From NCBI GenBank assembly GCA_965113315.1, contig OZ220369.1: a stretch of DNA of 64,000 nt; one strand, written 5' to 3'. This document shows positions 1,792 through 58,200 of the stretch, piece after piece. A program made the position numbers and the translations under genes. Every line of letters starts with the position of its first letter. Position 1 is the stretch's first letter. This DNA is from Podarcis vaucheri. Taxonomy: Eukaryota. The notes under the pieces were generated by a model that was not told the origin of the DNA, did no database searches, and worked only from the letters and a program-made list of their open reading frames with translations.

Positions 1792-2046
1792 GTAAGTTAT
1801 TTGTATTTCCAGCCCACCCTTCACCGTATAATCCTCATGTGTGTTCCAGAACCATCACAACTGAAACAAGTATTATTAAAATGAAACCAAAAGACAAAGC
1901 ATAGGAGCAGAACAGAAGCAGCACTGTTCAGCAGTGATGGAGAGAAGAGGAGGGAAGGCTTCCTGGGGAAAGAGAGGCACCTCACCCACCCCTTTCCAGG
2001 CATCCTGCTAAACCACCTTTTTGTTTCCTGATCACTTTGACTGCAG

Positions 2047-2181
2047 ATGACCTAATCCAGTTGACTGCCATGTGCTGGATGCGCGAATTCATCCAGCTGG
2101 CTGGCCGGGTGATGCTGCCATATTCCTCAGGGATCCTGACAGCTGTCCTGCCGTGCCTGTCCTATGACGACCGGAAGAAGA
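2047..2181 (+). CDS. VAC14: VAC14 exon 8 equivalent, [45 protein letters not shown]
   Basis: gcag|AT acceptor, 135 nt; ends at U12 donor A|GTATCCTTG; visible in ORF 2037..2348. Confidence 0.97.
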
Positions 2182-3146
2182 GTATCCTTGCAGCAGAGGC
2201 TGTTGCCTCCCTCCTCCTCCTCCTCCTCCCACCCCTTCCTTCACAAATGTCCGTCAGCATCTGGCAGAAAGGAGGGAGGAGGGTCAGGCTAAGTCAACAG
2301 CCCTGGTTTATGCCATTGGAGGATTTTGCTGCTGCTGCTTCCTTGTGAGCCTGTGGATCATGAAAAGGACTGGGGGCAGCTCCATAAGCAGCTCTGCTTT
2401 CTGTGCTTTCCTTGACATCAGAGCAGGCCCACAATTGCTTTTCCTGGGATGCTTAAGCAAAGGACTGGCTTCAGTAGGAGAGCCATTTTCATGTGGACAC
2501 CTCCTTTGTGGGTATCTTTACTGAAAGATGTAGCATCGCTTGGGCTGGGCCATGAGAAGGAATCAAGCATACTTCAGTATTCCTTTTGGCCCATGTGCTG
2601 TATTGTTCTCTAAACATTTGCCAAATCTGATATCTGATGCAACCTTTGCCAGCCTAAAAATTAAAAGGTTTTGTCTTGAAAACCAATCAACCTGAAACCA
2701 GTTTTCTAGCACTTAAAGGCTATGGAACTCACTCCGACAAGAAATAGTGATAGCCACCAACTTGGATGGCTTTAAAAGAAGACCAGACAAATTCATGGAG
2801 TAGGCTCTCAGTGCCTACAAGCCACGATGGCAATGTTCTTCCTCCACTGTCAGGGCCAGTGTGCCTGTGAATACAAGCTGCTAGGAATCTCAAGTAGGGA
2901 AAGATGCTCTTGTGCTCAGGTTCTGCTTGTGGGGTTCCCAGTGAGGCATCTTATTGGCCCCTTTTGGCTTGGTCCAGCACCCCCTCCCCCTCCCTCTCCC
3001 CTGTCTGTGGTTCTAGTGCCTATGGGCCCCTGTGAAAGATCTTGAGGCTAGACTCTTGCCATAGGGCCTGTTCTGTATGAGCCTACTACAATGGTGATTG
3101 GGAGCATGACTTGGGAATGAATGTTCCTTACATCCCTGGGGTGCAG
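2182..3146 (+). other. VAC14: U12-type (minor spliceosome) GT-AG intron 8
   Basis: 5' site GTATCCTTG; branch-like TTCCTTAC at 3124-3131, 15 nt before the intron end; no polypyrimidine tract; splicing restores KKS-IKEV. Confidence 0.93.
2720..2960 (+). mobile_element. CR1 LINE 3' fragment (inside U12 intron 8)
   Basis: gccaccaacttggatggctttaaaagaag...gacaaattcatggag CR1 ORF2 end plus 3' UTR; similar to 32060-32485 and 53410-53625. Confidence 0.7.
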
Positions 3147-29829: not shown

Positions 29830-30232
29830 GCATATTTTGTTTCCTACATCCAAAGAGTTATACCCTAAGTTTGAGGAGAGGCTTTGAGAATGATATTTGC
29901 CTGCCCATTCTGCACCTTTTAAACATTATGCTGTTTGATTGAAGGTTTAAACAAGTATTAAGGTTGATCTTTATTGCCAGTGCCTACCATGACCACCACT
30001 CTTTCTAGCAAGAGGACACACTTTCCCCTTCAAAAGAAGTTTGGCTTTGGGGTTGTCTTTTGCCTCTGTTCTCCATGGCCTAGTGGCCGACTTGAATCAC
30101 AGTTTATCTATGCTGGCTGGGGCTGATGGAAGTTGTAGTCTGAAACATCTGGAGGGCATCAAGTTGGCAAAGGCTGTTTCTTGGACATATTGAGAGTCCT
30201 GTTGTGCAAGGTAGTCTTGTGGGTTCATAGAG

Positions 30233-30786
30233 CAGTGTTTCCCAACCGGTGTTCCGCGGCACACTACTGTGCCGTGAGACGTTGGCTGGTGTGCCGTGGG
30301 AGGGAGGCGGGCGAGTCGGGCGGTGAGAGGCGGCGGCGGCGAGGATCCGCGTCGAGCCGGGGGCGGCTCCGCGGTGGTGGTGCCGAGCGGCGGGGCAGCG
30401 CGTGCAAAAGGGAGGAGCGCGAGACAGCGGAGGAGGAGGAGGCCGGCATGTCCGGGCAGCAGCAGCAACAACAGCAGCAGCAACTCCCGGCGACGGCTCC
30501 TCAAGCCCCGCCGCCGCCCCCTCCTCCGCCCGCTATCGCCGCCACCACCACAATAGCCGCCGCCGCCTCAGTTGCCGCCGTCCCTCAGTCCCTCGCTCTG
30601 CTGCCTCCTCCCACCCCCAAAGCTTGGAGGTTCCCCGGCAAGGGGGAGGGAAAAAACTTTCACTTTCGTGCGTCCCTCCCGGCGTGACGCTGCGCGCTGA
30701 CGTCACGGGGCTGTAATGGTGGTGTGCCGCGAGATTTTTTTCAGTAAACAGGTGTGCCGTTGCCCAAAAAAGTTTGGGAAACACTG
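30233..30786. mobile_element. hAT-family non-autonomous element with GC/CpG-rich cargo
   Basis: 13-bp perfect TIR CAGTGTTTCCCAA; perfect 8-bp TSD TCATAGAG (30225-30232, 30787-30794); subterminal GTGTGCCG repeats at both ends. Confidence 0.93.
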
Positions 30787-31155
30787 TCATAGAGCATCTC
30801 TCCTGAGATGCTTCATCTCCATACGATGTTTTGATTTCCATTTTCCATATCCTAGCCTGCTCTATAGCCGTGCTTAGCTGGGTTACTTTAAATGCTTTTT
30901 GGAATGACTTCCTAATAATCAAGTTTTCACTTTTATCTGTCACCTTCCAGCTTTGGTTTTCTATTGCTGTGCCAGGTTTGTGCCAATGTCTGCATATAGG
31001 AAATGCATTTTTATGCCTTTTCAGTTCAGAGGCATCTCCACACCTTTCCTCTCCCTGTGACTCAGAGGAGCACCAGAGTTCCTGATCTCTTTTATGACTG
31101 TGTAAAACAAAGAAGAGGCTAAAACAAATGGTAGTGTGCCTTCACTATGTATGCA

Positions 31156-34531: not shown

Positions 34532-34963
34532 CAGTGGTTTCCAAAGTGGGCAGTACTGAGCTTACCAAAGGAGCCTTTAAGAGGCAAGAAGACGTGGTGA
34601 CGGGAGAGTGCTGGAGGTGCAAATTATTATCAGACTTTGAAAAGCTGGTATCACTGGATCAAGTTCACCAGCTTTGTTGAATTAATTAAATTGAAAAGTT
34701 TTAATTAGATTTTGAATAAACATGAAATTATTTGTTACCTGTTTGAATTTTATTATGTTATTATTCTCCTTAGTGGGTTATGTAACCCACTATTCTGAAT
34801 AGTGCTTTTCATAGCATAGGGTAGGGGGCATTGGGCATGAGTTTATGGAACCAAGGGGTCAGTGTTTTTTTATCCTGTGAAATGCCCTGAGATCTTTGGG
34901 TGAAGAGCAGTATATGAATATAATAAACAAAAATAAATGAAACAAGAAATTTGGGGACCACTG
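34532..34963. mobile_element. Old hAT element with a LINE-tail-like fragment nested at about 34862-34940
   Basis: TIRs CAGTGGTTTCCAAA / revcomp CAGTGGTCCCCAAA; degenerate TSD ctctacgt / ctctagaa. Confidence 0.65.
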
Positions 34964-36546: not shown

Positions 36547-39500
36547 ACGATGCCACATTTATCTGTATGCCTGTGGTGCTCTAATCTTTCCCCTTCTCCT
36601 TTTGAAGGGTAGGTTTCTGTTGAACATGAAGCAAAATATTTGATGACGAGAGCAGTTTGACAGTGGAGCTGATTTAGCTGAAGGGGAGTGGTGGGTTCTC
36701 CTGTGCTGGATGCCTTCAAGCAAGCAGGGGATGGACAGCCATCTGTCTACCCGGGGTGCTCCAGATCTCTGGCTTTCCTGCATCAAGCTGTAGTGGGGAT
36801 TGGCGGTGTGTGTGTGTGTGTGTGTGTGGACTGGGCTTCTGGGAACTCCACAAGGCTCCCTCCAGCTCTCAGTGGATCTGAGCAAACTGCCTAAAACTGC
36901 AAGCCCAGGCTTTATTTACTATTATTTTTTAGTTAATAGATTGATTTGTTCAATAGATTCATTCAATACAGCAATAGGATTATTTACAAAATTAAGCTAA
37001 TGTATGATACCACACTCCATCAATATGTTGAGGCATCTTGCGTCTGTGTGGGAGACCCTTTGGTTGGGCAAATGTCCAATTTATTTTACTCATTGATGTA
37101 TTAATTCACGGATCTCCTTTTCCATTCATCGCAAGGCAATGTACTTTCCTCGTGGCTCCAAGAGCTTTGCAAAGTGGTGAAGGTGGCCCAGTGCCTCTCC
37201 CTCTTTCCTTCCCCCAAAGCATGCATGATGTTTGTAAGGTAGAAAGCATTCTTGGCGGTGTTGAGATTATCTCAAGGTAATAATTGACTAGTTAAGCAAT
37301 CTCTAAGTAGCCATTGCTGCAATTAAATCTTAATTGGTCTATCTGCGCTGGATAGGACCCCTCATTGCTGACATGTGGCTAAGCATAACTACTTGGGAAA
37401 CAGCTGGTCCATTCTGTGGGGAGAAGGCATATTGGCCAAAGACCATTCATTTCAGAGATGGTAATGGCTCCTTTGGCGCTATTAGCATCCCCGATAAATA
37501 AGAGGATGCTTTTGAAATACGCAGGGATCATCCGTGCTTGGTCTCAGTGCTCATTTTTAGTAATTGATTGACATTAAGCTTCACATCTGCAGCCTAATGG
37601 CTTCAGATTCTGAGAGTGGGAGGCAGGCTGCCTAGTTAGGTAGGTGGTCAAAGTGAGCATGCCAGTGCTTGTGATGTGGAAGCCCCACCCCCCTACATCT
37701 ATACTAGATGTAGATGCAGAAGTGGCATATATCTGCAGTATGGGGCAAGTGGCAACTCCTGCTTTCAGAAGCACCAGAATGACAGGGAGTGATTTTTGCT
37801 TTTTTAAAAACCTTTGCATTGGGGGGGGGGTGTGTGAATAGCTTTTCCGAGGGGTTTCTTGGGCGTTGGAGCAACTTGTAAAACTGAAGCCAGTCTGTTT
37901 CGATTTGGTAGCTTCCTGCTAGAGATAGGCAAGCTCTCTTTGGCCTGGATTGAAAATGTTCAGAATTTTTCCAGGGCAGAAAAATGGGGGAAAGGAGAAT
38001 AATTTCCCAACCTCCTTCATTTCCCCGCAGAGACACGGCCCCTTCCCTTTCCTCATAGCAGCAGCTGATTAGTTTAAACCAGACCCTGCTGAAGAACCCT
38101 AGGAAGAGGGACACGTCCTGCTTTCAGGGGGGCCCACGTGTCCCTGAGAAAGAAGACCCAATGCAAAGCAAAACGCTTCTCCTCTTTGTCCTTGCTGTTC
38201 CGGTGCCATCAGCAGCCTTAAATATGAAGACGGAGCTTCTGCGCCCAGTGGGCATTTGGCCAGTAGGGGAATGAATGCCCTTGGCATGGGAGGCTGCACA
38301 GTCAGTGGTGTGCAGAAGGGAGCCACTTCAGAGTGCAGGTGCCTCTCTGGGAAGAGGGTGGCATTTGGGAACCACTGTGTTTGCCTTCCCCTGGGCTTCT
38401 TGTGGGTTTGCCTTCTTCCTGCCAAGTGGAGTCTTGTGACTGGAGGATGCATTCAGTTCATTACAGCCGGCTGTGATCTTAGCACTCCTCGCTCTTTCCT
38501 CCGGTCTGTTAGTCCCACACCTGGGAAGAAGGGGTTGGACACTCTGTTTTTGAAAACCCTGCTTAGGTTATTCACTTGGGTAGCTTAGTTATCAGTTTGT
38601 TTTGCCCCCATGATGTCCAGGTCCAACTAGACAAGGGACACCCCCCATTTCAGCATGGGGATTAATAGAAGGGCCGTGACAGGAGCGAGTATTCTCAGTA
38701 ACTATACTTTTAAACAAACCACACTTCCTTGAGTTTCAATGTCCTCGAGAAGTGTAGCTGTTCTAAAATTGAAAGTAGAAGCTTCCGGCCTCCTTGCAGG
38801 CACAGTTGAGAAGTAGGAATACAGAAGCCTAAGACTTGCGATGTCTAGCTAATGTAGTATTAGGAAACCATGGTCTCCTGTTACATCTGAAGTGAGCCAT
38901 GGTTCTCTGTAGCAGAAGATGCTAATTGGCTGCCATTAAGTCAGTAATCATTTGTGTGTAAACTATTCACCCGATTCCCTATGCATTTCTGAATGCAGTG
39001 AAGGTATCTGAAGGTGCCATCTGCCTTCAACACTCCTCCTCCCTCTGTGGAAATCCTTAATAACATTTATTCACCTTTCTCATGCTGTGTAAAAGGAAGG
39101 TGCAGCCTTATCACTGCATATTCCTCAAAATTGGATAAGCCTGTGAGCATTTGCTCTTGTTAGCCCTCCTGAAGCGTCTTCATCTATTGCGTTTCTAATG
39201 AAGAAATTGAATGGTTAGAAATAAGGAGCTTGAGCTGCCTCGGAAATTAGGCCACAGCTGTCAGCCTGAAAGCAAAACATGCATCTCTGAGGAAGATGCT
39301 GGCAGAATCCGCTGCTGATTAACCCCCTTTTAAACCGAGATGAAAAAACAAAAACAAAACTCCTGGTGCCTTGAAGCAAGCTGGAGAAAGCAGCCAGAGA
39401 GAGGCAGGGAATGGAACATGATGCCTCCTCCATAGAGCGAGGGCAGAGATCTTCCTTTCGCTGTGGGTCTTCGGAGCTTTGGTCCAGCTCAGCTTTCCCT

Positions 39501-49100: not shown

Positions 49101-50191
49101 TAAATCAGAACCACCAGCACACCCTTGGGAATTGGAGACAGGGTGCAACACAGGTGAACCTCTGCTGGCTTTCTGCTGTGAAAGTGGGGGCATCTCCCTC
49201 CCTGCACAAATAACTTTGCAATCACCTAGCACACCTTCCAGATATATCATTACTGCCACCACAGGGAGCCTTTACTGGAATCGTGGGGAATAAATATTTA
49301 TTCAAATTTTTAATAAAACTGATAGAAGGGAAACAAAGGATGAAGATAATGCCACATGCAAGATTTGTTTGTTTGTTTGTTTGCATTTTCCTACCTTACA
49401 CTTGCTTTGAACTCAAGGTCATTTGTGAAAGAACAAGGGTTTGACCTCAGCCCTCCACTCTGTCTGGAAAGCTTGAAATTGCTTGTGTTAATCCAGAACA
49501 GATTGGTCTGGGGTGAGGGTGGGGGCGCTGCCTGATGTGTCCCAGAGAGCGAGTTGGAAGGAAGAGAAACTAGGTGAGGCAGCTGTTGCTGCTGCTGCTA
49601 TGTGTGTGTGTGTGAATGGGGCCTGTAATAAAAAAGCTGCAATATGGAGCACTGCTCTCCTAGGATACTCCTTTTCCCTCTCTTCCATTCTGGTTTCCCC
49701 TTTCCAACAGGCAACCTAGTATTCCATGGCCTCTGAGTGAGTTTACATCATTGGGCTGTTGGGGGTCATTCTTTCTCTTCTCCCCTAAGTGTTTTTTCCT
49801 TCATAATATGTGTTATACCTTTGCAAGACCTAGGGGTATTCCCCAGAGCATTTTAATTCCTCCTTTGTTCCTCAGTGACCCTGTTTGCTAAAACCCCATT
49901 GGCACTCACCAGCTGAGTTCGCTGTTAGAAGGAGTGATGGGGCTTCTTCCCTAAGGGGCAAGTTCGGTCTTGGCCTACTGGGGGAAATGGTGATAGGAAG
50001 GAGAACACTTTTGTAAAGGCTTGCTGCAGAGGACGGGACCAGGCACTTGTTGCATCCTAGATTCTCACCCAAGATTATTGTCTTTGATATTTGGGGATTG
50101 TGGTGGCGGTATCCCACCCACCCACCCTCCAAATTCACAGCAACCCCCTTTGTTGGTCAACTCCTAATCTCCATTTTTTGGTCCCATGCAG

Positions 50192-50366
50192 GCAACTCTG
50201 TCTTCTCCTGAATGCTGAGAACATCTTTCACTCGATGGCTGACATCCTGCTGCGGGAGGAAGACCTCAAGTTTGCCTCAACGATGGTCCACACCCTCAAC
50301 ACCATCCTTCTGACTTCTTCTGAGCTCTTCCAGCTGAGGAACCAACTCAAGGATCTGAAGACGGCG
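50192..50366 (+). CDS. VAC14: VAC14 exon 15 equivalent, [58 protein letters not shown]
   Basis: gcag|G acceptor, GCG|gtatgt donor, 175 nt; C-terminal Fig4-binding region. Confidence 0.97.
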
Positions 50367-50784
50367 GTATGTTGCACCTGAGAAGATGTGTCTGTGACTT
50401 TGCTGGGCTGTGCAGCCTCTTTCTCCACCCACCCTAGAAGTGACTTGGGCACTGCATGCTGGAGCTCAGGCGGCCATCAACACACACACCCCCCTGTTTT
50501 TTAAAGCTGTCTAGGTTGGTTGTCGCCACTGTCTTGTGTCTTGTGCTTGTGTCGCTATCTACCATAAGTGGCACACATGGCGGTCCTGCTGTGCTTGGTA
50601 GTGCTGAAGCCTTGCCACCAGGACATCTGGCTCTGCATTGTTGCAGGAGGTGACCCCTCGTCCCACCCTGCTACCTAGTTTTTGGGGCTCTGTTTTTCTG
50701 GAGTTGCCTTTGGTTCCCAAAAGCAGACTTGGGAGTGGTGTGTGGAGGTGCAAGTCAACTCTTCTTACTTTTTTGTCTCCCCAG

Positions 50785-50903
50785 GAGAGCCGCAACCTGT
50801 TCTGCTGCCTGTACCGTTCCTGGTGCCACAACCCAGTGACCACCGTCTCCCTCTGCTTCCTCACTCAGAACTACAAGCATGCCTATGACCTCATCCAGAA
50901 GTT
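50785..50903 (+). CDS. VAC14: VAC14 exon 16 equivalent, [40 protein letters not shown]
   Basis: ccag|GAG acceptor, 119 nt; ends at U12 donor TT|GTATCCTTC. Confidence 0.97.
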
Positions 50904-52696
50904 GTATCCTTCTAGCACGGGGAGGGAGGGAAGGCACATGAGATGGTGGCTGTCTGCACTGTGGAGTCTAAGCAGGCCTCGGAAGCTGCTGCCTCTTGGC
51001 CCATAAAATACGGCAGTGAACTCGGGCTGCCAATTAGAAGTGGTCAGCCCCAAGGTCCTTTACATTGCGGAAGGCATCTTCATTTTCTGACATTCACCAT
51101 TGCACATCATGATAGCAGCAGAGACCAGAACGGCTCCTATGGCTGGAAAAGTCTCTCAGATAAAAGAGCTCAAAAGTCGTAAGGATGTTGGGAGATGGTG
51201 GATGATGTACAGGACTGGATGTGCTCCCTGCCTCTCTCCCTCACCAGACGGATCTCACATAATTTAGTGCAATGTTTCTCAAACTGGGGTCCTCAGCTGT
51301 TGTTGGACTGCAACTCCCATCATCCCTGACCACTGGTCCTGCTAGCTGGGGGTGATGGGAGTTGTAGTCCAACAACAGCTGGGGACCCCAGTTTGACAAA
51401 CATTGCACTAAATTATGTGAGATCCACTTGGTCATCTTAAAATGGGCATAGTGCAGAAACAGAGGAAAGCAGAGGGCGAATGGGGGCAGAAGAGACAGCA
51501 GAGCATCGTTTCAATTACACATCCTTTGGCTTAGCTGCAGTAGGATATTATTTTGGAGATTTATATCCTGCCTTGGATTGATCCTCAAAGCAGCTTACAA
51601 TAGATTGCAGTAACACAGAGAGAAACCTGAAAGCTCCCAGCCATGCAAAGCATTGACCACTGAGCACATGGCACAACTTGCTGGTTAGGACTTCCAGGAA
51701 TAGGGGAGGTTTGAGAAGAGCCTATTTGTAGCATTCGCACAGTTCTCAGCTAAGGCCAGTTTCATGCCTAATGCTGCTGGGGGGTACTGGGGGTGCAAAC
51801 TGCCAGGCCCTGTTACATGGGGCTGGTTTTTGTCTGAAGTCTCTCCTATGTGCTTTGAACCATGTTTTAAAATTCATGGCGAACTCATCTTCAGACTTCT
51901 AAAAATTATATTATTGGGCATAAACAGAGTACTACAGGCTGTATGTGCATGACCAATCTCTTAGGTACACACAAGTTCAGATTCTCTTTTAAGAGCACTT
52001 GGCGTCTATTAAAATTACAATAATTTTAATCTTACTAAGTTTATCACCACCAGTAACTTTAAATCCACTAGAGCAGTCTTCGTCAACCTAGGACGCTCCA
52101 GACATTTTGGACTGCAACTCCCATCAGCTCCCCAGACAGCACCAGGTTGGCGAAGGCTACACTAGACTGTGTACATTTAGATTTTTGCTGTTACCACTGA
52201 CCTGCTTCTGCCACAAAAATTTTGAACATGGGCCTGCCTTAGCAGAAACTGTCCGTTCCCAGGACTTTTTTCCAACAATGAGGATTAAACAGCTTCTCTG
52301 TTTTTAGCTCATGTTTCCATGTTGAGAAGGCGGGAACAGTCAGATCTGGCAGAATAATCCACATTTTGTGCTTAGCATTGGAAAAGTGGCCTGCGGGTAG
52401 GCAAGGGTGGAGGGAGTTTCTTCCAGGAAGGCCTCTCTGTGTCTCTGTACGAGCCCCATCAAAAGGCAGTGGCGTTTTGCAAGCACCTTCATCATGCCAT
52501 CTTCAAAGCCAGGAGCTTAAGAGAAGAAGCTTGTTCATCCTCTCTCTGGTCTTTGGCTTTGTAGGGCAGCGTGGTGTTAGGCTGTGTGGCTTCTGCCCCC
52601 CCCCCAGTGCCTAGTGCCTTCCAGATGTTTTGGACTACAAATCCCATCAGCCCCTGCCAGCATGGGCAGATTAGGCTCCTTAACAGCCGTGCTCAG
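50904..52696 (+). other. VAC14: U12-type (minor spliceosome) GT-AG intron 16
   Basis: 5' GTATCCTTC; branch TCCTTAAC at 52677-52684, 12 nt before the intron end; no pyrimidine tract; splicing restores QKF-GDLEV. Confidence 0.95.
51250..51425. repeat. 176-nt inverted repeat built on a palindromic hAT-like MITE; family copies also near 4885, 17760, 26060, 30110, 39490, 52073, 52610 and 57080
   Basis: About 77-bp arms with 4 mismatches and an about 22-nt loop. Confidence 0.92.
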
Positions 52697-52776
52697 TGGT
52701 GACCTGGAGGTCACAGTGGATTTCCTGATTGAGGTTGACAAGCTGGTCCAGTTGATTGAGTGTCCGATTTTTACAT
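52697..52776 (+). CDS. VAC14: VAC14 exon 17 equivalent, [26 protein letters not shown]
   Basis: ctcag|T acceptor, T|gtaagc donor, 80 nt. Confidence 0.97.
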
Positions 52777-53212
52777 GTAAGCTCTCTTTCACTCTTGCAG
52801 AAGTGTGTATGTGTGTGCGCTCGCATTGGCAGGAGGGTTTGGGGGGCTTTGCACTTTGTGGTGCATTAGCATTGACACACGTACCCGAGGCCCCACTCCC
52901 TCATTGCAACTGGCAACGTGGCCCAAATAAATAGAGCAGAAGTTATGAGCCTCTTTGCTGTGAGACCTTCTGGCTCATGTGCCCATTAGGGCCATCCAAA
53001 AGCAGCAGCAGCATTGCAGTGGATAGGAAGCAGAATGTAGGTTAGGGACACAAACTGCATTTGCTCAGGGGAGACCAAGGGAAACAGGGGATGAAAAACC
53101 AGCCCCAGGGGGGAAGGTGGGGGGAACTGAGTGGGTCTGCTCTGGAGAAGAAAAGGATAACATACTTCAAGTCCCCAAGGGCCCCCTGCATAAGAGAAGT
53201 GGAGAGGCTTCT

Positions 53213-53214
<2 letters not shown>

Positions 53215-53250
<36 letters not shown>
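53215..53250. repeat. (GCT)12 trinucleotide repeat
   Basis: Direct reading. Confidence 0.95.
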
Positions 53251-53253
<3 letters not shown>

Positions 53254-53409
53254 GCTGCCCCAGAGAGGGCAGAGACTTGATCACATGGGCTTAAGTAATA
53301 GATGGGTAGCTGTTAGCTGAACATTAAGAAACTTGCTGGGAAGAGCTGTTGGACAAGGCGATTGCAGGGTGGGGTGGAGGCCCCCCTTAGCTATCTTCCT
53401 TCAAGCAAA

Positions 53410-53625
53410 GGCTACTAGCCACGATGGCCACGCTCTGCCTTCCACAGCTGGAGGCAGTGGTGCTACTGAATATTGGTTTGCTGGGAACCACAGGAGAAGA
53501 GAGTGTTTTTGTGCTCAGGTCCTGCTTGCAGTTTTCCTATAGGCATCTGGGTGGCCATGGTGAGAACAGGATGCTGAACTAGACAGGCCATTTCCCTGAT
53601 CCAACAGGCTGCTCTTATGTTCTCA
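53410..53625 (+). mobile_element. CR1 3' UTR fragment
   Basis: ggctactagccacgatggc...ctgatccaacaggctgctcttatgttct. Confidence 0.65.
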
Positions 53626-53725
53626 GAGGCTGGACAAATCCTTCTTTGATCTGCTGGGGATGGCGGCTCCAGCTCTCAATCTCCTGCATTGATCAGGCAA
53701 GGGGTTGGGCTACCAGGTGGCCTAT

Positions 53726-54089
53726 AAAGGTAAAGGTACCCCTGCCCGTACGGGCCAGTCGTGTCCGACTCTAGGGTTGTGCGCCCATCTCACTTAAGAG
53801 GCCGGGGGCCAGCGCTGTCCGGAGACACTTCCGGGTCACGTGGCCAGTGTGACGAAGCTGCTCTGGCGAGCCAGCACCAGCGCAGCACACGAAACGCCGT
53901 TTACCTTCCCGCTATAAAGCAGTACCTATTTATCTACTTGCACTTAGGGGTGCTTTCAAACTGCTAGGTGGGCAGGAGTTGGGACCGAAAGATGGGAGCT
54001 CACCCCGCCGCGGGGATTCAAACCGCCGACCATACAATCGGCAAGTCCTAGGCTCTGAGGTTTTACCCACAGCGCCACCCGCGTCCCCC
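53726..54089 (-). mobile_element. Sauria SINE, full-length young copy
   Basis: Minus-strand head GGGGACGCGGGTGGCGCTGTGG (A-box) and GGTTTGAATCC (B-box); (ACCTTT)n tail; many CpGs retained. Confidence 0.9.
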
Positions 54090-55130
54090 ACAAAAAAGAC
54101 CCTTTTTGATTCCAGGCTCTGACCTTTGCACTGGAGTTGATGTAGAAACTCAGGGGGCAAGTTCCACTTTGGAATGTGCTTCTGAGCTACCTGTTGCTAC
54201 AGAAGTGAGAGCCTCAGCAGCAGAAATGATTTCTCCCACTCCTGCTGAACCATGTGACCTTGTACCATGCCCTCCAGAGTCTTCCTTTCCATGCAGCTGC
54301 AGTAGCCACCAGTGTAGTGGATGTCAACATGGGAGCCACTTGCAGCAATGGTTGCAAGGAGCTTCTGTTCCATGCAGAAGCCCCCCCCCTTTGTTCTTTT
54401 TAATTGCTGGGATCTTCACTGGGGATGAGGCACTGCTGTCTCCCACCCATGCCTGCCCAACTGGGCTGTTGCAAGGCAACTATCTCACTCTGGAGGGGAC
54501 CTGCAAGGCAATCTGGAGCAGCACCCTGGCATACACCAAGGTCCCCTTGTCCAAATAAAGCCTCTCCTACTTTCTGCCCCTCATAAGAAGAGCTCTGCAG
54601 CTGGATCAGGCCAAAGGAGGCCCTTGGGCTCACATCCCTGCCCGGGCCTCACACTGTCTCCTGAACTTGCTGCTTCAATGACAAACCTTTCTCCATAAGC
54701 TGGCTTTCCTGTTTCTATGATACCCCATAGAGCAGGTGTTAAACTCCTCAGATCCCTTTGCCTATGCTACCAAAGAGGCATGCATGCACACAACACTCCT
54801 TCTTGCACAAAGGCAGTCCCACTGTGATTCCCCCCCCCCCAACCCTCCGAGATTCATTGCCATTTCAGTGTCTTTCTCCTATTTCTGGGTCTATTTGCTG
54901 AGTGGATGGCAGCATCTCTGTGCTTTCCATGGCAGAAAGATCCCCATTTTCCACCAGGGACACACAAATGGTGTGATGGCATGCGGCTGCATGCATGCAT
55001 GCAAAAAGCAAGAAGACGGATGGAAGAGAAGAACGCAGAGGATCTGTGCACCCTGCTTCTCCCTCCCCCTTTTTGGAGAAAGGTCAGCAGCTTTCACAGC
55101 CCTGCTTACCCTTCCCTTCTTTGCTTGCAG

Positions 55131-55281
55131 ATCTCCGCTTGCAGCTGCTGGATGTGAAGAACAACCCTTACCTCATCAAGGCTCTGTACGGGCTTCTGAT
55201 GCTCCTGCCCCAGAGCAATGCCTTCCAGCTCCTCTCCCACCGCCTACAGTGCGTGCCCAACCCAGAACTCCTGCAAACAGC
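55131..55281 (+). CDS. VAC14: VAC14 exon 18 equivalent, [51 protein letters not shown]
   Basis: ttgcag|AT acceptor, GC|gtaagt donor, 151 nt. Confidence 0.97.
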
Positions 55282-58200
55282 GTAAGTCGCCAACGCGCCT
55301 CTGGGGCATCCTTCAGAGCAGCTTGCCCCACTGCTTTGGCTGCCTGCCCTACAGAGAGGCAGAGCTTCTGCAGAGGCTGTCTTGCTGCAGGACCATCCAG
55401 CCACGAAGGAGTGGGGAGGACCCCTTGGGCACAGGAGGGCACGTATAAAATGCTATTTGTTGTTGGCACTAAGGACAGGGTGCACATTTTCAAGATAATA
55501 ACACTGTCCAGTACACGAGGCAGGAAGGTGTGGACTTATCCAGCACGCTGCCTTGTTGTGGTACCATGAGGAGAGAAGCCATGTCTGTCTACACCCCTCA
55601 CCCTCTCTCCTATGCAGCTACTGCATTAAGCCCAGAGCTTTATGTTGGGTCAGGAGCTGGCCCCACTTGCTAATTCTCCGCCATCACATTGGCCTGCCTT
55701 TCCTTCTAGCACACCTTATGGTGGCTTTGGCAGGACCTTCAGAGCTCTCTGCATCTGCCAAGTGCTGGTTGTGGAAGACTGGAGTTCTGCTTGGTTGATG
55801 GTGCTCGTTGATGGTGGGGTCAGCTGATCATTAGGTGCAGATCTGCTTGTGGACTTGGTTGTGTGGATGCACTTAGCCAGGGCCTGTGTTTTGAGTAGAC
55901 AGCACTTCCCATGACAGTTTCTGTTTGTTAGCAGAAGGAGTGTCTGTTGGCCCCATGACTCATGTAGGCTGGCTGGAGTAAGAGAAGGAACAGTAGTTCG
56001 TTTTCAACATCAATGATGGAGCGTCCGCCTGGCCTGGCACCACTACTGGGCATTCCTGTGTGTGCCGACAGTGCCCAGCTCTGACTTCAGCACAGCGGGA
56101 AGGGGAAGGATCCCTGTGCATGGCCCAGATCCTGCCAGCCAGTCATGCCTCACCCCATCCCCAGGCAAACATAATTTGCATGGGTTTTCTAGCCTGGGCT
56201 CTGCCTTAAGTTGAAGCTCCCCTACTGGCCTTTCCTGCCCCTTGAGCTTGTCACCTTCAGGCCCAGCTGAGGCCCACGTCTCTTCTTGCAGAGTCCCTCT
56301 GTGTGGTGGTGGTGACTGGCCGCTTGCCTCCCTTCCCCCCATGGCAGAGAGACTATAAGGGAGCAGCGATCTGAACCGTCCAGTTTTCTTCTGTGGCTCT
56401 TCTGCTCCAGGGGCTGTAGTCTTTGAGTTGGGGGGGGGCTGCAACTCTCAGCAGGCAAGGCCCCCAAGGGTGTGCCGAGAGCCATTCCTGGAGCTGTTTT
56501 GTGAGAGGGGGGAGGACTTCAGGTCCATCCTCCTTGCCCTGCACAGTGAAGCACTTTTTGAGTTTTGTCTATATTTGGTCAGCCTCGGAGGGCTGTGCCT
56601 CATCCACAGGCATTTGGCATCTGGGATGGAAACTTTCCCTTGTGGTATTGCCATGGAAACAAGCAGAGCCATGGAGGAGATGGGAAGGAGCCCGTTCCCA
56701 TCAGCGTGCCAGGGGAGCTTGTTTAGGTCTCCTTGGGGATCCTGCATGAACCGCAGGCAGCAAGAAGCCAGCTCTCTCCTCCTCCTCCTTCTCCAGGCGC
56801 AGAGTGCCTGCTGTTGAGGCTGTTGTCCGGCAGGGCAAAGCAGGGTGAGCCACCAGCTGTCCCCTCCCCTTTTCTCCTCTTCCCTTTGGGTACAGCAGCT
56901 GCATTTGGAAGGCTCTTTCCCTTTCAGGAGAGCTTTCTCTTTGCCCAGCTCTTAGGATTCTTGCATATAAGGGCAGCAGCTTTTTGTGCTGCTGTTTTTC
57001 AAAGAAGTCCAGTGCATGCACTGGGGAATGGAGTCCATGTCCAAAGATCCATTTTTTAAAAAATTGCCAGGGAGCCAGGTGTTGGTGTTGGGCTCCAAAT
57101 CCCATCAGCCCCAACAGCCAGCATGGCATCACATACCCAGGAATGATGGGAGTTGGGAGTCCAGCAATACCACCTGGAAATGATACGTTCTGGAAATGGC
57201 TCCAGGAGGGGCTGCACATCTACTCCCCTCTTCAGATCTTCAGAATCTGCTCTGTTTCATGGGCAAGTTGCTGCTTTGCGGCTGCTGTGAATGCAGGTCA
57301 CTGACCCTCTTTGTGTGGGCTTTGGGCCAAGAGTAGTGACAACTGCTGGGGCCCTTCCCCCCCCACCGCGGCTCTATGAAGGCTGCAGCAGGAAGGGCTC
57401 TTGCTTCCTGGAAGGCCCTTGTGTCAGAGTCTCCTGAGCTGGCCTAGAAAGGGTGGGGTGGGAGGAAGGAGCTCTGGCACTGGGGCAAAGATGAGAGTGA
57501 GGGGTGGTCAGTCTTCTTTAGCCTGTAAATGACCACGAGGGCCTTCCTTGTCAGTTGTGTGTAGGGGAGACCTGTAGGAAAATAGCAAGCCATTTAAGTA
57601 ACAGGAAAAGTGAGAGTTGCTGTGTGGATTTTACCGGGCTAGGGGGTGGGGGTGAGGAGATGTCTGCCCCTCCCCCATTTCTTTAATGTCAGATCCTGTC
57701 CCAGATTGGTGTCACTGTGACACAGCCCCATTCCGCCCCCAGGCTTGGGGGTCCTGGAGGGTCACTTTGTGTGTGAGCTGTTCTCTTCTGTGTATTTTCT
57801 ATGCCGTTTTTCTCCCATGACTGCTGAATATTTGGAGCTGTCAGACAGACTGAACATCTGATTAACTGTGACCTACATTCCATTAAACATTGGCAGTGAC
57901 TTTCATAACAAATGCAGCTGAAAAGCATCCCCTCCCCGAATTAGCTGGAGATGGGCAGCGTTAACTTGCCTTCCTACTGCCCCCAACCCTTCCCTGGTGT
58001 TTTTTCCATTTCATTGCAGGAATCAGGTAGCAGATCTCTTCCCAGTTCTGCATTGAGTGGGAGAGAGGAGGGAAGGGGGACCTTTTTGACCCAGAGGGCA
58101 AGTTCATTATCTCCCCACACCCCCAGGGCCCAACTTTGCCAGTTGGCAAAGGTGACCACCCACCAGTCAATCGCTTGATGTCATTAGAAGCCCTAATTGA

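Follow-up and report, generated by a model that had tools for sequence, protein, structure and literature searches.

Capture of gene fragments by cut-and-paste transposons has been held to be rare in animals and nearly always single-copy, and it may proceed by gap filling or by FoSTeST. In plants, Pack-MULEs join fragments of several loci. Helitrons have neither terminal inverted repeats (TIRs) nor target-site duplications (TSDs) and end with a hairpin and CTAG. The animal survey of Tan et al. (PMC8277862) counted 208 Pack-hATs among 370 Pack-TIRs, of which it describes only four as multicopy (3 to 5 copies in the frog examples given); the multicopy Pack-TIRs take GC-rich DNA, Pack-hAT-N8_XT of Xenopus tropicalis carries the CAPSL 5' UTR, and the one lizard included, Anolis, with only 77 annotated DNA elements, contributed none. 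In bats, the promoters of 15 captured genes are reported to have been spread by Helitrons to 4,690 copies (HelibatN3/NUBPL; PMC4778049). For the Buster group of hAT elements, the target consensus is given as nnnTAnnn (PMC3517528).

Here we describe a 554-bp non-autonomous element at positions 30233-30786 of a 64,000-nt stretch of Podarcis vaucheri DNA (OZ220369.1; hereafter the window). With a probability of roughly 0.9, it is a short Buster-type hAT that carries RANBP9 exon 1 and TCF20 promoter DNA, likely captured by template switching, that was shortened by deletion and is likely a functionless passenger mobilised in trans. As in the multicopy Pack-TIRs of animals, hAT ends flank non-transposon host DNA, parental copies without such ends exist, the copies have distinct TSDs, the cargo is GC-rich and 5', and a template-switch model applies; unlike the Pack-TIRs described in that survey, the lizard family has at least 707 short copies, joins two genes in one element, draws on several more donors and holds cargo inside autonomous copies (PMC8277862). 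With plant Pack-MULEs and Pack-TYPE elements, as these sources portray them (PMC8277862, PMC4778049), it has in common non-autonomous TIR elements, GC-rich gene fragments and, often, multiple copies, but it belongs to the Buster hAT superfamily and lives in a vertebrate. Like the bat Helitrons, these are vertebrate DNA elements spreading promoter and first-exon pieces widely; those Helitrons are described as rolling-circle elements without TIRs or 8-bp TSDs, both of which are present here, so that Helitron-type features are absent, and promoter and exon-trap activity has been demonstrated for them (PMC4778049), whereas in the lizard elements such activity is at most putative. The nnnTAnnn TSD, the short TIRs and a partner of 600-680 aa recall Buster MITEs, with Mar as the example given, and ZBED5/SCAND3-like transposases (PMC3517528). 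Unlike Buster MITEs such as Mar, the lizard interior is host-derived and not a deletion of a transposase gene; a sister family in the lizard (L048-L077) is of the ordinary deletion-MITE kind. Pack-hATs in vertebrates are already known, and the novelty lies in the scale, in the mosaic of several genes and in the cargo within autonomous copies of a vertebrate cut-and-paste element. The open literature yielded no report of the lizard family and nothing linking RANBP9, a transposon and a lizard; subscription journals, Repbase and Dfam lie outside that scope, and a consensus may be filed there.

Table 1. Parts of the element and its flanks in the 64,000-nt window
Feature	Position	Strand	Description
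Left target-site duplication	30225-30232	+	8 bp, TCATAGAG; TA at positions 4-5, Buster type
Left TIR	30233-30245	+	13 bp; same TIR on autonomous copies
Left transposon arm with GTGTGCCG subterminal motifs	30233-30341	+	Bases 1-109, common to autonomous copies (92.7% to L110)
TCF20 promoter/non-coding first exon piece	30343-30425	-	Antisense to ORF; matches TIR-less L170
GAC microhomology at TCF20/RANBP9 junction	30423-30425	+	7 of 8 bases alike counting the next five
RANBP9 exon 1 piece	30423-30574	+	25 nt of 5' UTR, ATG, ORF codons 1-42
Chimeric ORF	30448-30687	+	79 codons: RANBP9 N-terminal fragment, then read-through into the 30575-30713 module
GC-rich module	30575-30713	+	139 bp; common to other family members, including CDK5R2 carriers
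Right transposon arm with subterminal motifs	30714-30786	+	90-93% identical to autonomous right end
Right TIR	30774-30786	-	13 bp
Right target-site duplication	30787-30794	+	8 bp, TCATAGAG

An earlier note, made from the letters of the window, had proposed a young hAT MITE with captured CpG-island cargo, and the architecture it gave was confirmed throughout (Table 1): the two TIRs are 100% complementary over their 13 nt and are the only exact matches to this TIR in the window, the 8-bp TSD is perfect, and the subterminal motifs lie close to both ends. The proposed cargo of about 410 nt is indeed CpG-rich, with an observed/expected ratio of 0.95 at 72% GC inside the element against 0.22 for the window, and the two 500-bp bins over the element have the highest CpG of the 128 bins in the window; its first ~40 bp (30302-30341), however, are native left arm and are also present in autonomous elements. 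Bases 1-69 of this arm recur in the sister deletion family. Within the 412-bp interior, 232 bp can be traced to two TIR-less host CpG islands, while the 139-bp module falls outside the host-traced portion, and a segment of it (30694-30716) is also found near the left end of two autonomous copies (L105 and L106). The ORF translates as previously written, and its interpretation as a captured N-terminus stands for the first 42 codons, the remainder being read-through that is not RANBP9. Taken alone, the 79-codon ORF matched no Pfam family and, among 882 candidates, no longer protein at E<=0.01; a name for its donor came solely from longer members of the family.

The element likely lies inside an intron of VAC14. 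Four of 143 frames in the window match PF11916 and mark C-terminal exons of VAC14 at 50088-55282 (+); an exon-like frame at 1938-2345 (+) is presumably also VAC14, and a PDB search returned no match for this frame near 2000. RNA reads leave most flanks of the insertion without depth. Further hAT-like TIR matches with one or two mismatches occur at 34532-34963 and 38365-38377, and one pair of such matches faces inward, about 430 bp apart.

The first donor is RANBP9. A 1.26-kb form of the element contains a whole coding exon ending at GT, and its ORF was identified as RANBP9 (544 protein hits, best E 2.7e-75). RANBP9 exons 2 onward lie at C27:33.79-33.81 Mb, and exon 1 (L176), 5.4 kb upstream of them and inside a CpG island, has no TIR and no subterminal motif; this is the TIR-less parental match at a gene first exon that the earlier note had named as support for capture. 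Over 631 matched bp, L176 and a long family member (L134) differ by 13 mismatches and 34 gap positions, and the match includes about 145 bp of RANBP9 intron 1. All 30 loci recovered when this donor was sought by DNA were transposon copies; the donor itself ranked 34th of 40 and was fetched separately. In the window copy, the RANBP9 piece carries an in-frame 87-bp deletion after 30504, with GCCCC on both sides. Other members (L135 type) have RANBP9 promoter sequence without the TCF20 piece.

The second donor emerged among longer members, which were found via motifs taken from the loose ends of RNA reads. Eleven of the 12 loci retrieved with these motifs start with the TIR; the twelfth (L170, also retrieved as L122; C29:42.80 Mb) does not. 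It has no transposon ends and no subterminal motifs, is a CpG island whose opposite strand bears a site like a splice donor, and matches 30335-30387 at 98% and 30387-30439 at 91% (53 bp each). A very long coding exon lies 7 kb downstream of it, and the relatives of this exon are named TCF20. In a control, the low-complexity interior of the element gave only a weak background match to an unrelated CpG island (80% over 49 bp, E 8e-7), and the case for the short matches between window and donors therefore rests mainly on the longer members, of which those of the L120 type contain about 1.3 kb of the TCF20 locus (98% over 1,032 bp and 94% over 297 bp). With RANBP9 exon 1 and the TCF20 promoter and first exon both located, the guess that the cargo came "perhaps from two loci" proved correct. 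In another member (L125:1709-1830), a first coding exon beginning MYRSLRSL and ending at GT adjoins the TCF20 piece.

Family members are graded from 1.9 kb down to 520 bp, and one chimeric junction is common to those of 1.26 kb, 736 bp, 554 bp and 520 bp. The 736-bp form is the 1.26-kb form without its middle, and loss of 85 bp of the TCF20 piece (after 30386) and of the 87 bp of RANBP9 turns the 736-bp form into the window element. Other genes have contributed as well: a CDK5-activator fragment in the 5' region of an autonomous copy (L103:5306-5518; Pfam E 1.8e-8, above the cut-off), which we take to be CDK5R2 rather than CDK5R1, is 99-100% identical among autonomous copies with intact transposase frames, and 29 of 30 loci with this fragment have transposon arms, the remaining one (L187, G000:C1:88.226 Mb) being a TIR-less gene with the whole frame. 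A transglutaminase-3-like exon with its splice donor is carried by L128 (663-824, minus; E 4e-8) and also by L129. As judged from these sequences, capture recurs within the family. At L128, L173 and L062, GC-rich non-autonomous elements whose ends differ from those of the family lie within or next to its members; capture of cargo may not be limited to the element's own family.

The short forms are abundant. In the animal's own genome (1.61 Gb), a 20-mer across the short-form deletion junction has exact matches indicating at least 707 short copies, against 50 for a long-form word, and a 24-mer at the ATG has 827; the reversed controls of the 20-mer and the 24-mer gave 0. All 40 scored matches, the best 40 of 2175 candidates, were full length at 98-100% identity. 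As the 30 top copies were chosen by likeness to the window copy, which biases their divergence low, a spaced sample was used instead, consisting of 40 copies taken at intervals from 100 listed places on two contigs only. All 40 match both donors, and 38 have both ends, of which 17 are near 554 bp and 21 near 520 bp. Among these 38, the TSD is perfect in 37 (28/30 in the top set) and TA occupies TSD positions 4-5 in 37 (30/30 in the top set). Short, free of transposase, uniform in length (554 or 520 bp) and high in copy number, these elements have the features of MITEs, and their distinct TSDs mark separate transpositions. Other copies with the same ends, which the earlier note had asked for, are thus found by the hundreds; what had been taken for capture in this insertion is capture of host DNA, but an old one within a large mosaic family and not specific to the insertion. 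The two sampled copies without a left arm (L209 and L210) have the cargo beside an inverted piece of itself, within another shared sequence, which looks like a second capture. Sixteen RNA reads join the right end of the element to its left end (30789 to 30228) with a spacer of TSD length, which means that the sequenced animal has either a circle or a head-to-tail dimer of the element.

Autonomous partners were located by searching the genome with a full-length transposase relative. They measure 3.9-4.3 kb, 11 of the 12 fetched have both ends with matching TSDs, most bear the exact TIR of the window element at both ends, and they share its bases 1-109 and 482-554. Eight of the 12 contain a 626-627-aa transposase frame with D, D, CxxH, RW and E, which we take as the motif list of hAT transposases for scoring, and the seven frames of equal length differ by 1.1% on average. 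Relatives of the transposase are named ZBED5-like or SCAND3-like, the L103 protein is 98% identical to a Podarcis muralis entry, and in a protein tree drawn without a TcBuster row the transposase groups with ZBED5/SCAND3-like proteins, apart from four long-branch hAT-like proteins. Its Pfam matches (zf-C2H2_12, E 1e-4; zf-BED, E 0.03) are both under the cut-off, and a PDB search gave no match for it. The hAT assignment made earlier is borne out by the 8-bp TSDs, the nnnTAnnn target and the TIRs and subterminal repeats on autonomous copies, and on these characters the element classifies as a non-autonomous hAT of Buster type. The window element keeps 73 bp of the right end; for a related Buster element, poor mobility is reported with ends of 41-64 bp (PMC12637253). 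A separate search with DUF4371 gave 17 hAT-like loci, none of which carries the element; L046 has other ends.

Bases 1-69 and 482-554 are all that the sister family has in common with the element, and the 1-kb members of that family retain the transposase C-terminus, a remnant that is 98% identical to an entry from salamander, 95% to Podarcis muralis, 92% to Thamnophis and 89% to spider; transposase entries are 91-98% identical among salamander, lizard, frog, snake and spider (L074:1656-2072 and relatives). Such identity across taxa suggests horizontal transfer, possibly repeated. The autonomous copies L103-L114 have an older internal left end and an added 5' arm of 1.4-1.8 kb that differs between subfamilies, from about 377 bp upstream of the transposase ATG outward; the arm contains GC- and CCAAT-like boxes together with sites resembling splice donors and, about 180 bp ahead of the ATG, one resembling an acceptor. 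A captured promoter with first exon, driving the transposase, is one possible reading of this arm. A wider reading, which we regard as conceivable though unlikely, is that a horizontally acquired Buster in wall-lizard-like lacertids would act as a harvester of CpG islands on the scale of Pack-MULEs, with the autonomous 5' ends rebuilt from captured promoters and first exons and the offspring scattering hundreds of cassettes, some of them driving or trapping host transcripts.

Whether the captured CpG islands are put to use, as mobile promoters or exon traps or by keeping the elements open and transposing, which would account for their amplification, appears doubtful, and we judge it quite improbable. 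The three donors located are all CpG islands, though GC-rich cargo had been the starting point of the search; the RANBP9 frame is intact to the exon end in 16 of 27 long copies; RNA reads from the same or a related species, which are unassignable to single copies, cover the interior; and bat Helitrons are described as making such use of captured promoters (PMC4778049). Against this, (i) the CpGs of the family are decaying, with CpG transitions per base of 2.8% in 554-bp and 1.3% in 520-bp copies and non-CpG changes of 0.7% and 0.23%, each measured against the majority of its own subfamily, so that CpG transitions run at 4-6 times the non-CpG changes; (ii) the short forms are without the CCAAT-bearing part of the TCF20 piece; (iii) the RANBP9 splice donor of the long copies is altered by a 1-bp deletion; and (iv) no cluster of RNA starts was listed, with 6-12% of the raw-read runs read. 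The ORF of 78-79 codons is kept in only 10 of the 17 sampled copies of the 554-bp type, and its changes across copies comprise 9 synonymous and 15 non-synonymous ones, against 21 synonymous and 23 non-synonymous ones possible at CpGs. Given the loss of the ORF, the mixture of synonymous and non-synonymous changes, the deleted CCAAT part and the altered splice donor, function is unsupported, and the copies are likely passengers. The pattern of CpG loss, like that of methylated DNA, points to germline methylation and neutral decay.

These figures also bear on age. The earlier note took undecayed CpGs as a sign of recent insertion; CpGs are decaying across the family. The family itself is young, as follows from the low divergence of the copies from their subfamily majorities. 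Since k-mers of the family are present in sequencing runs of eight organism labels, with no RNA run among those listed, the insertion need not be very recent.

It is very improbable that the element is an ordinary deletion MITE whose GC-rich interior is the native subterminal or promoter region of an autonomous hAT. In the autonomous copies the 5' regions are CpG-rich, and bases 1-109 and 462-484 of the element recur there, but 30343-30574 has no counterpart in the 12 autonomous copies except for one low-complexity match at 80%, the same segment matches the RANBP9 and TCF20 loci, which are TIR-less, and captured CDK5R2 sequence is present even in the autonomous 5' regions; origin by deletion is thereby refuted for 232 bp and may hold for the other 139 bp. 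Transfer in the reverse direction, from the transposon to the host loci, would suit the far greater number of copies than donors, but it has next to no probability given that homologues of the RANBP9 N-terminus occur in skink, bearded dragon and other lizards and that neither donor has ends or subterminal motifs. Insertion of reverse-transcribed mRNA into an element, to which the RANBP9 exon-1 sequence of the window copy would by itself conform, is refuted by the intron sequence, as longer members continue past the exon into the intron and include promoter DNA from upstream of both genes.

Under the preferred reading, a Buster-type hAT with captured and then shortened host DNA, the template of capture was genomic DNA, since the longer members contain intron 1 and promoter sequence. 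Repair of breaks at or in an element would have switched templates, at short homologies, to CpG-island DNA that was accessible, and more than one switch, during gap repair or FoSTeST, would have produced the chimeras; microhomologies of 3-7 bp are easily found in GC-rich DNA, so that the repair route is unproven. Deletions would then have shortened the elements, in an order that probably ran from long to short, and the shortest forms would have amplified most. As the ends are shared with autonomous copies, we infer that the 626-aa transposase of the family mobilises the short elements in trans through the common arms.

To conclude, a young family with named donors, graded intermediates, hundreds of insertions and intact transposase genes is present in one genome, and capture, shrinkage and amplification are therefore both traceable and testable in it. 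For work on these lizards, the hundreds of CpG-rich copies that resemble RANBP9 and TCF20 can be a source of error in gene annotation, in the calling of CpG islands and in read mapping.
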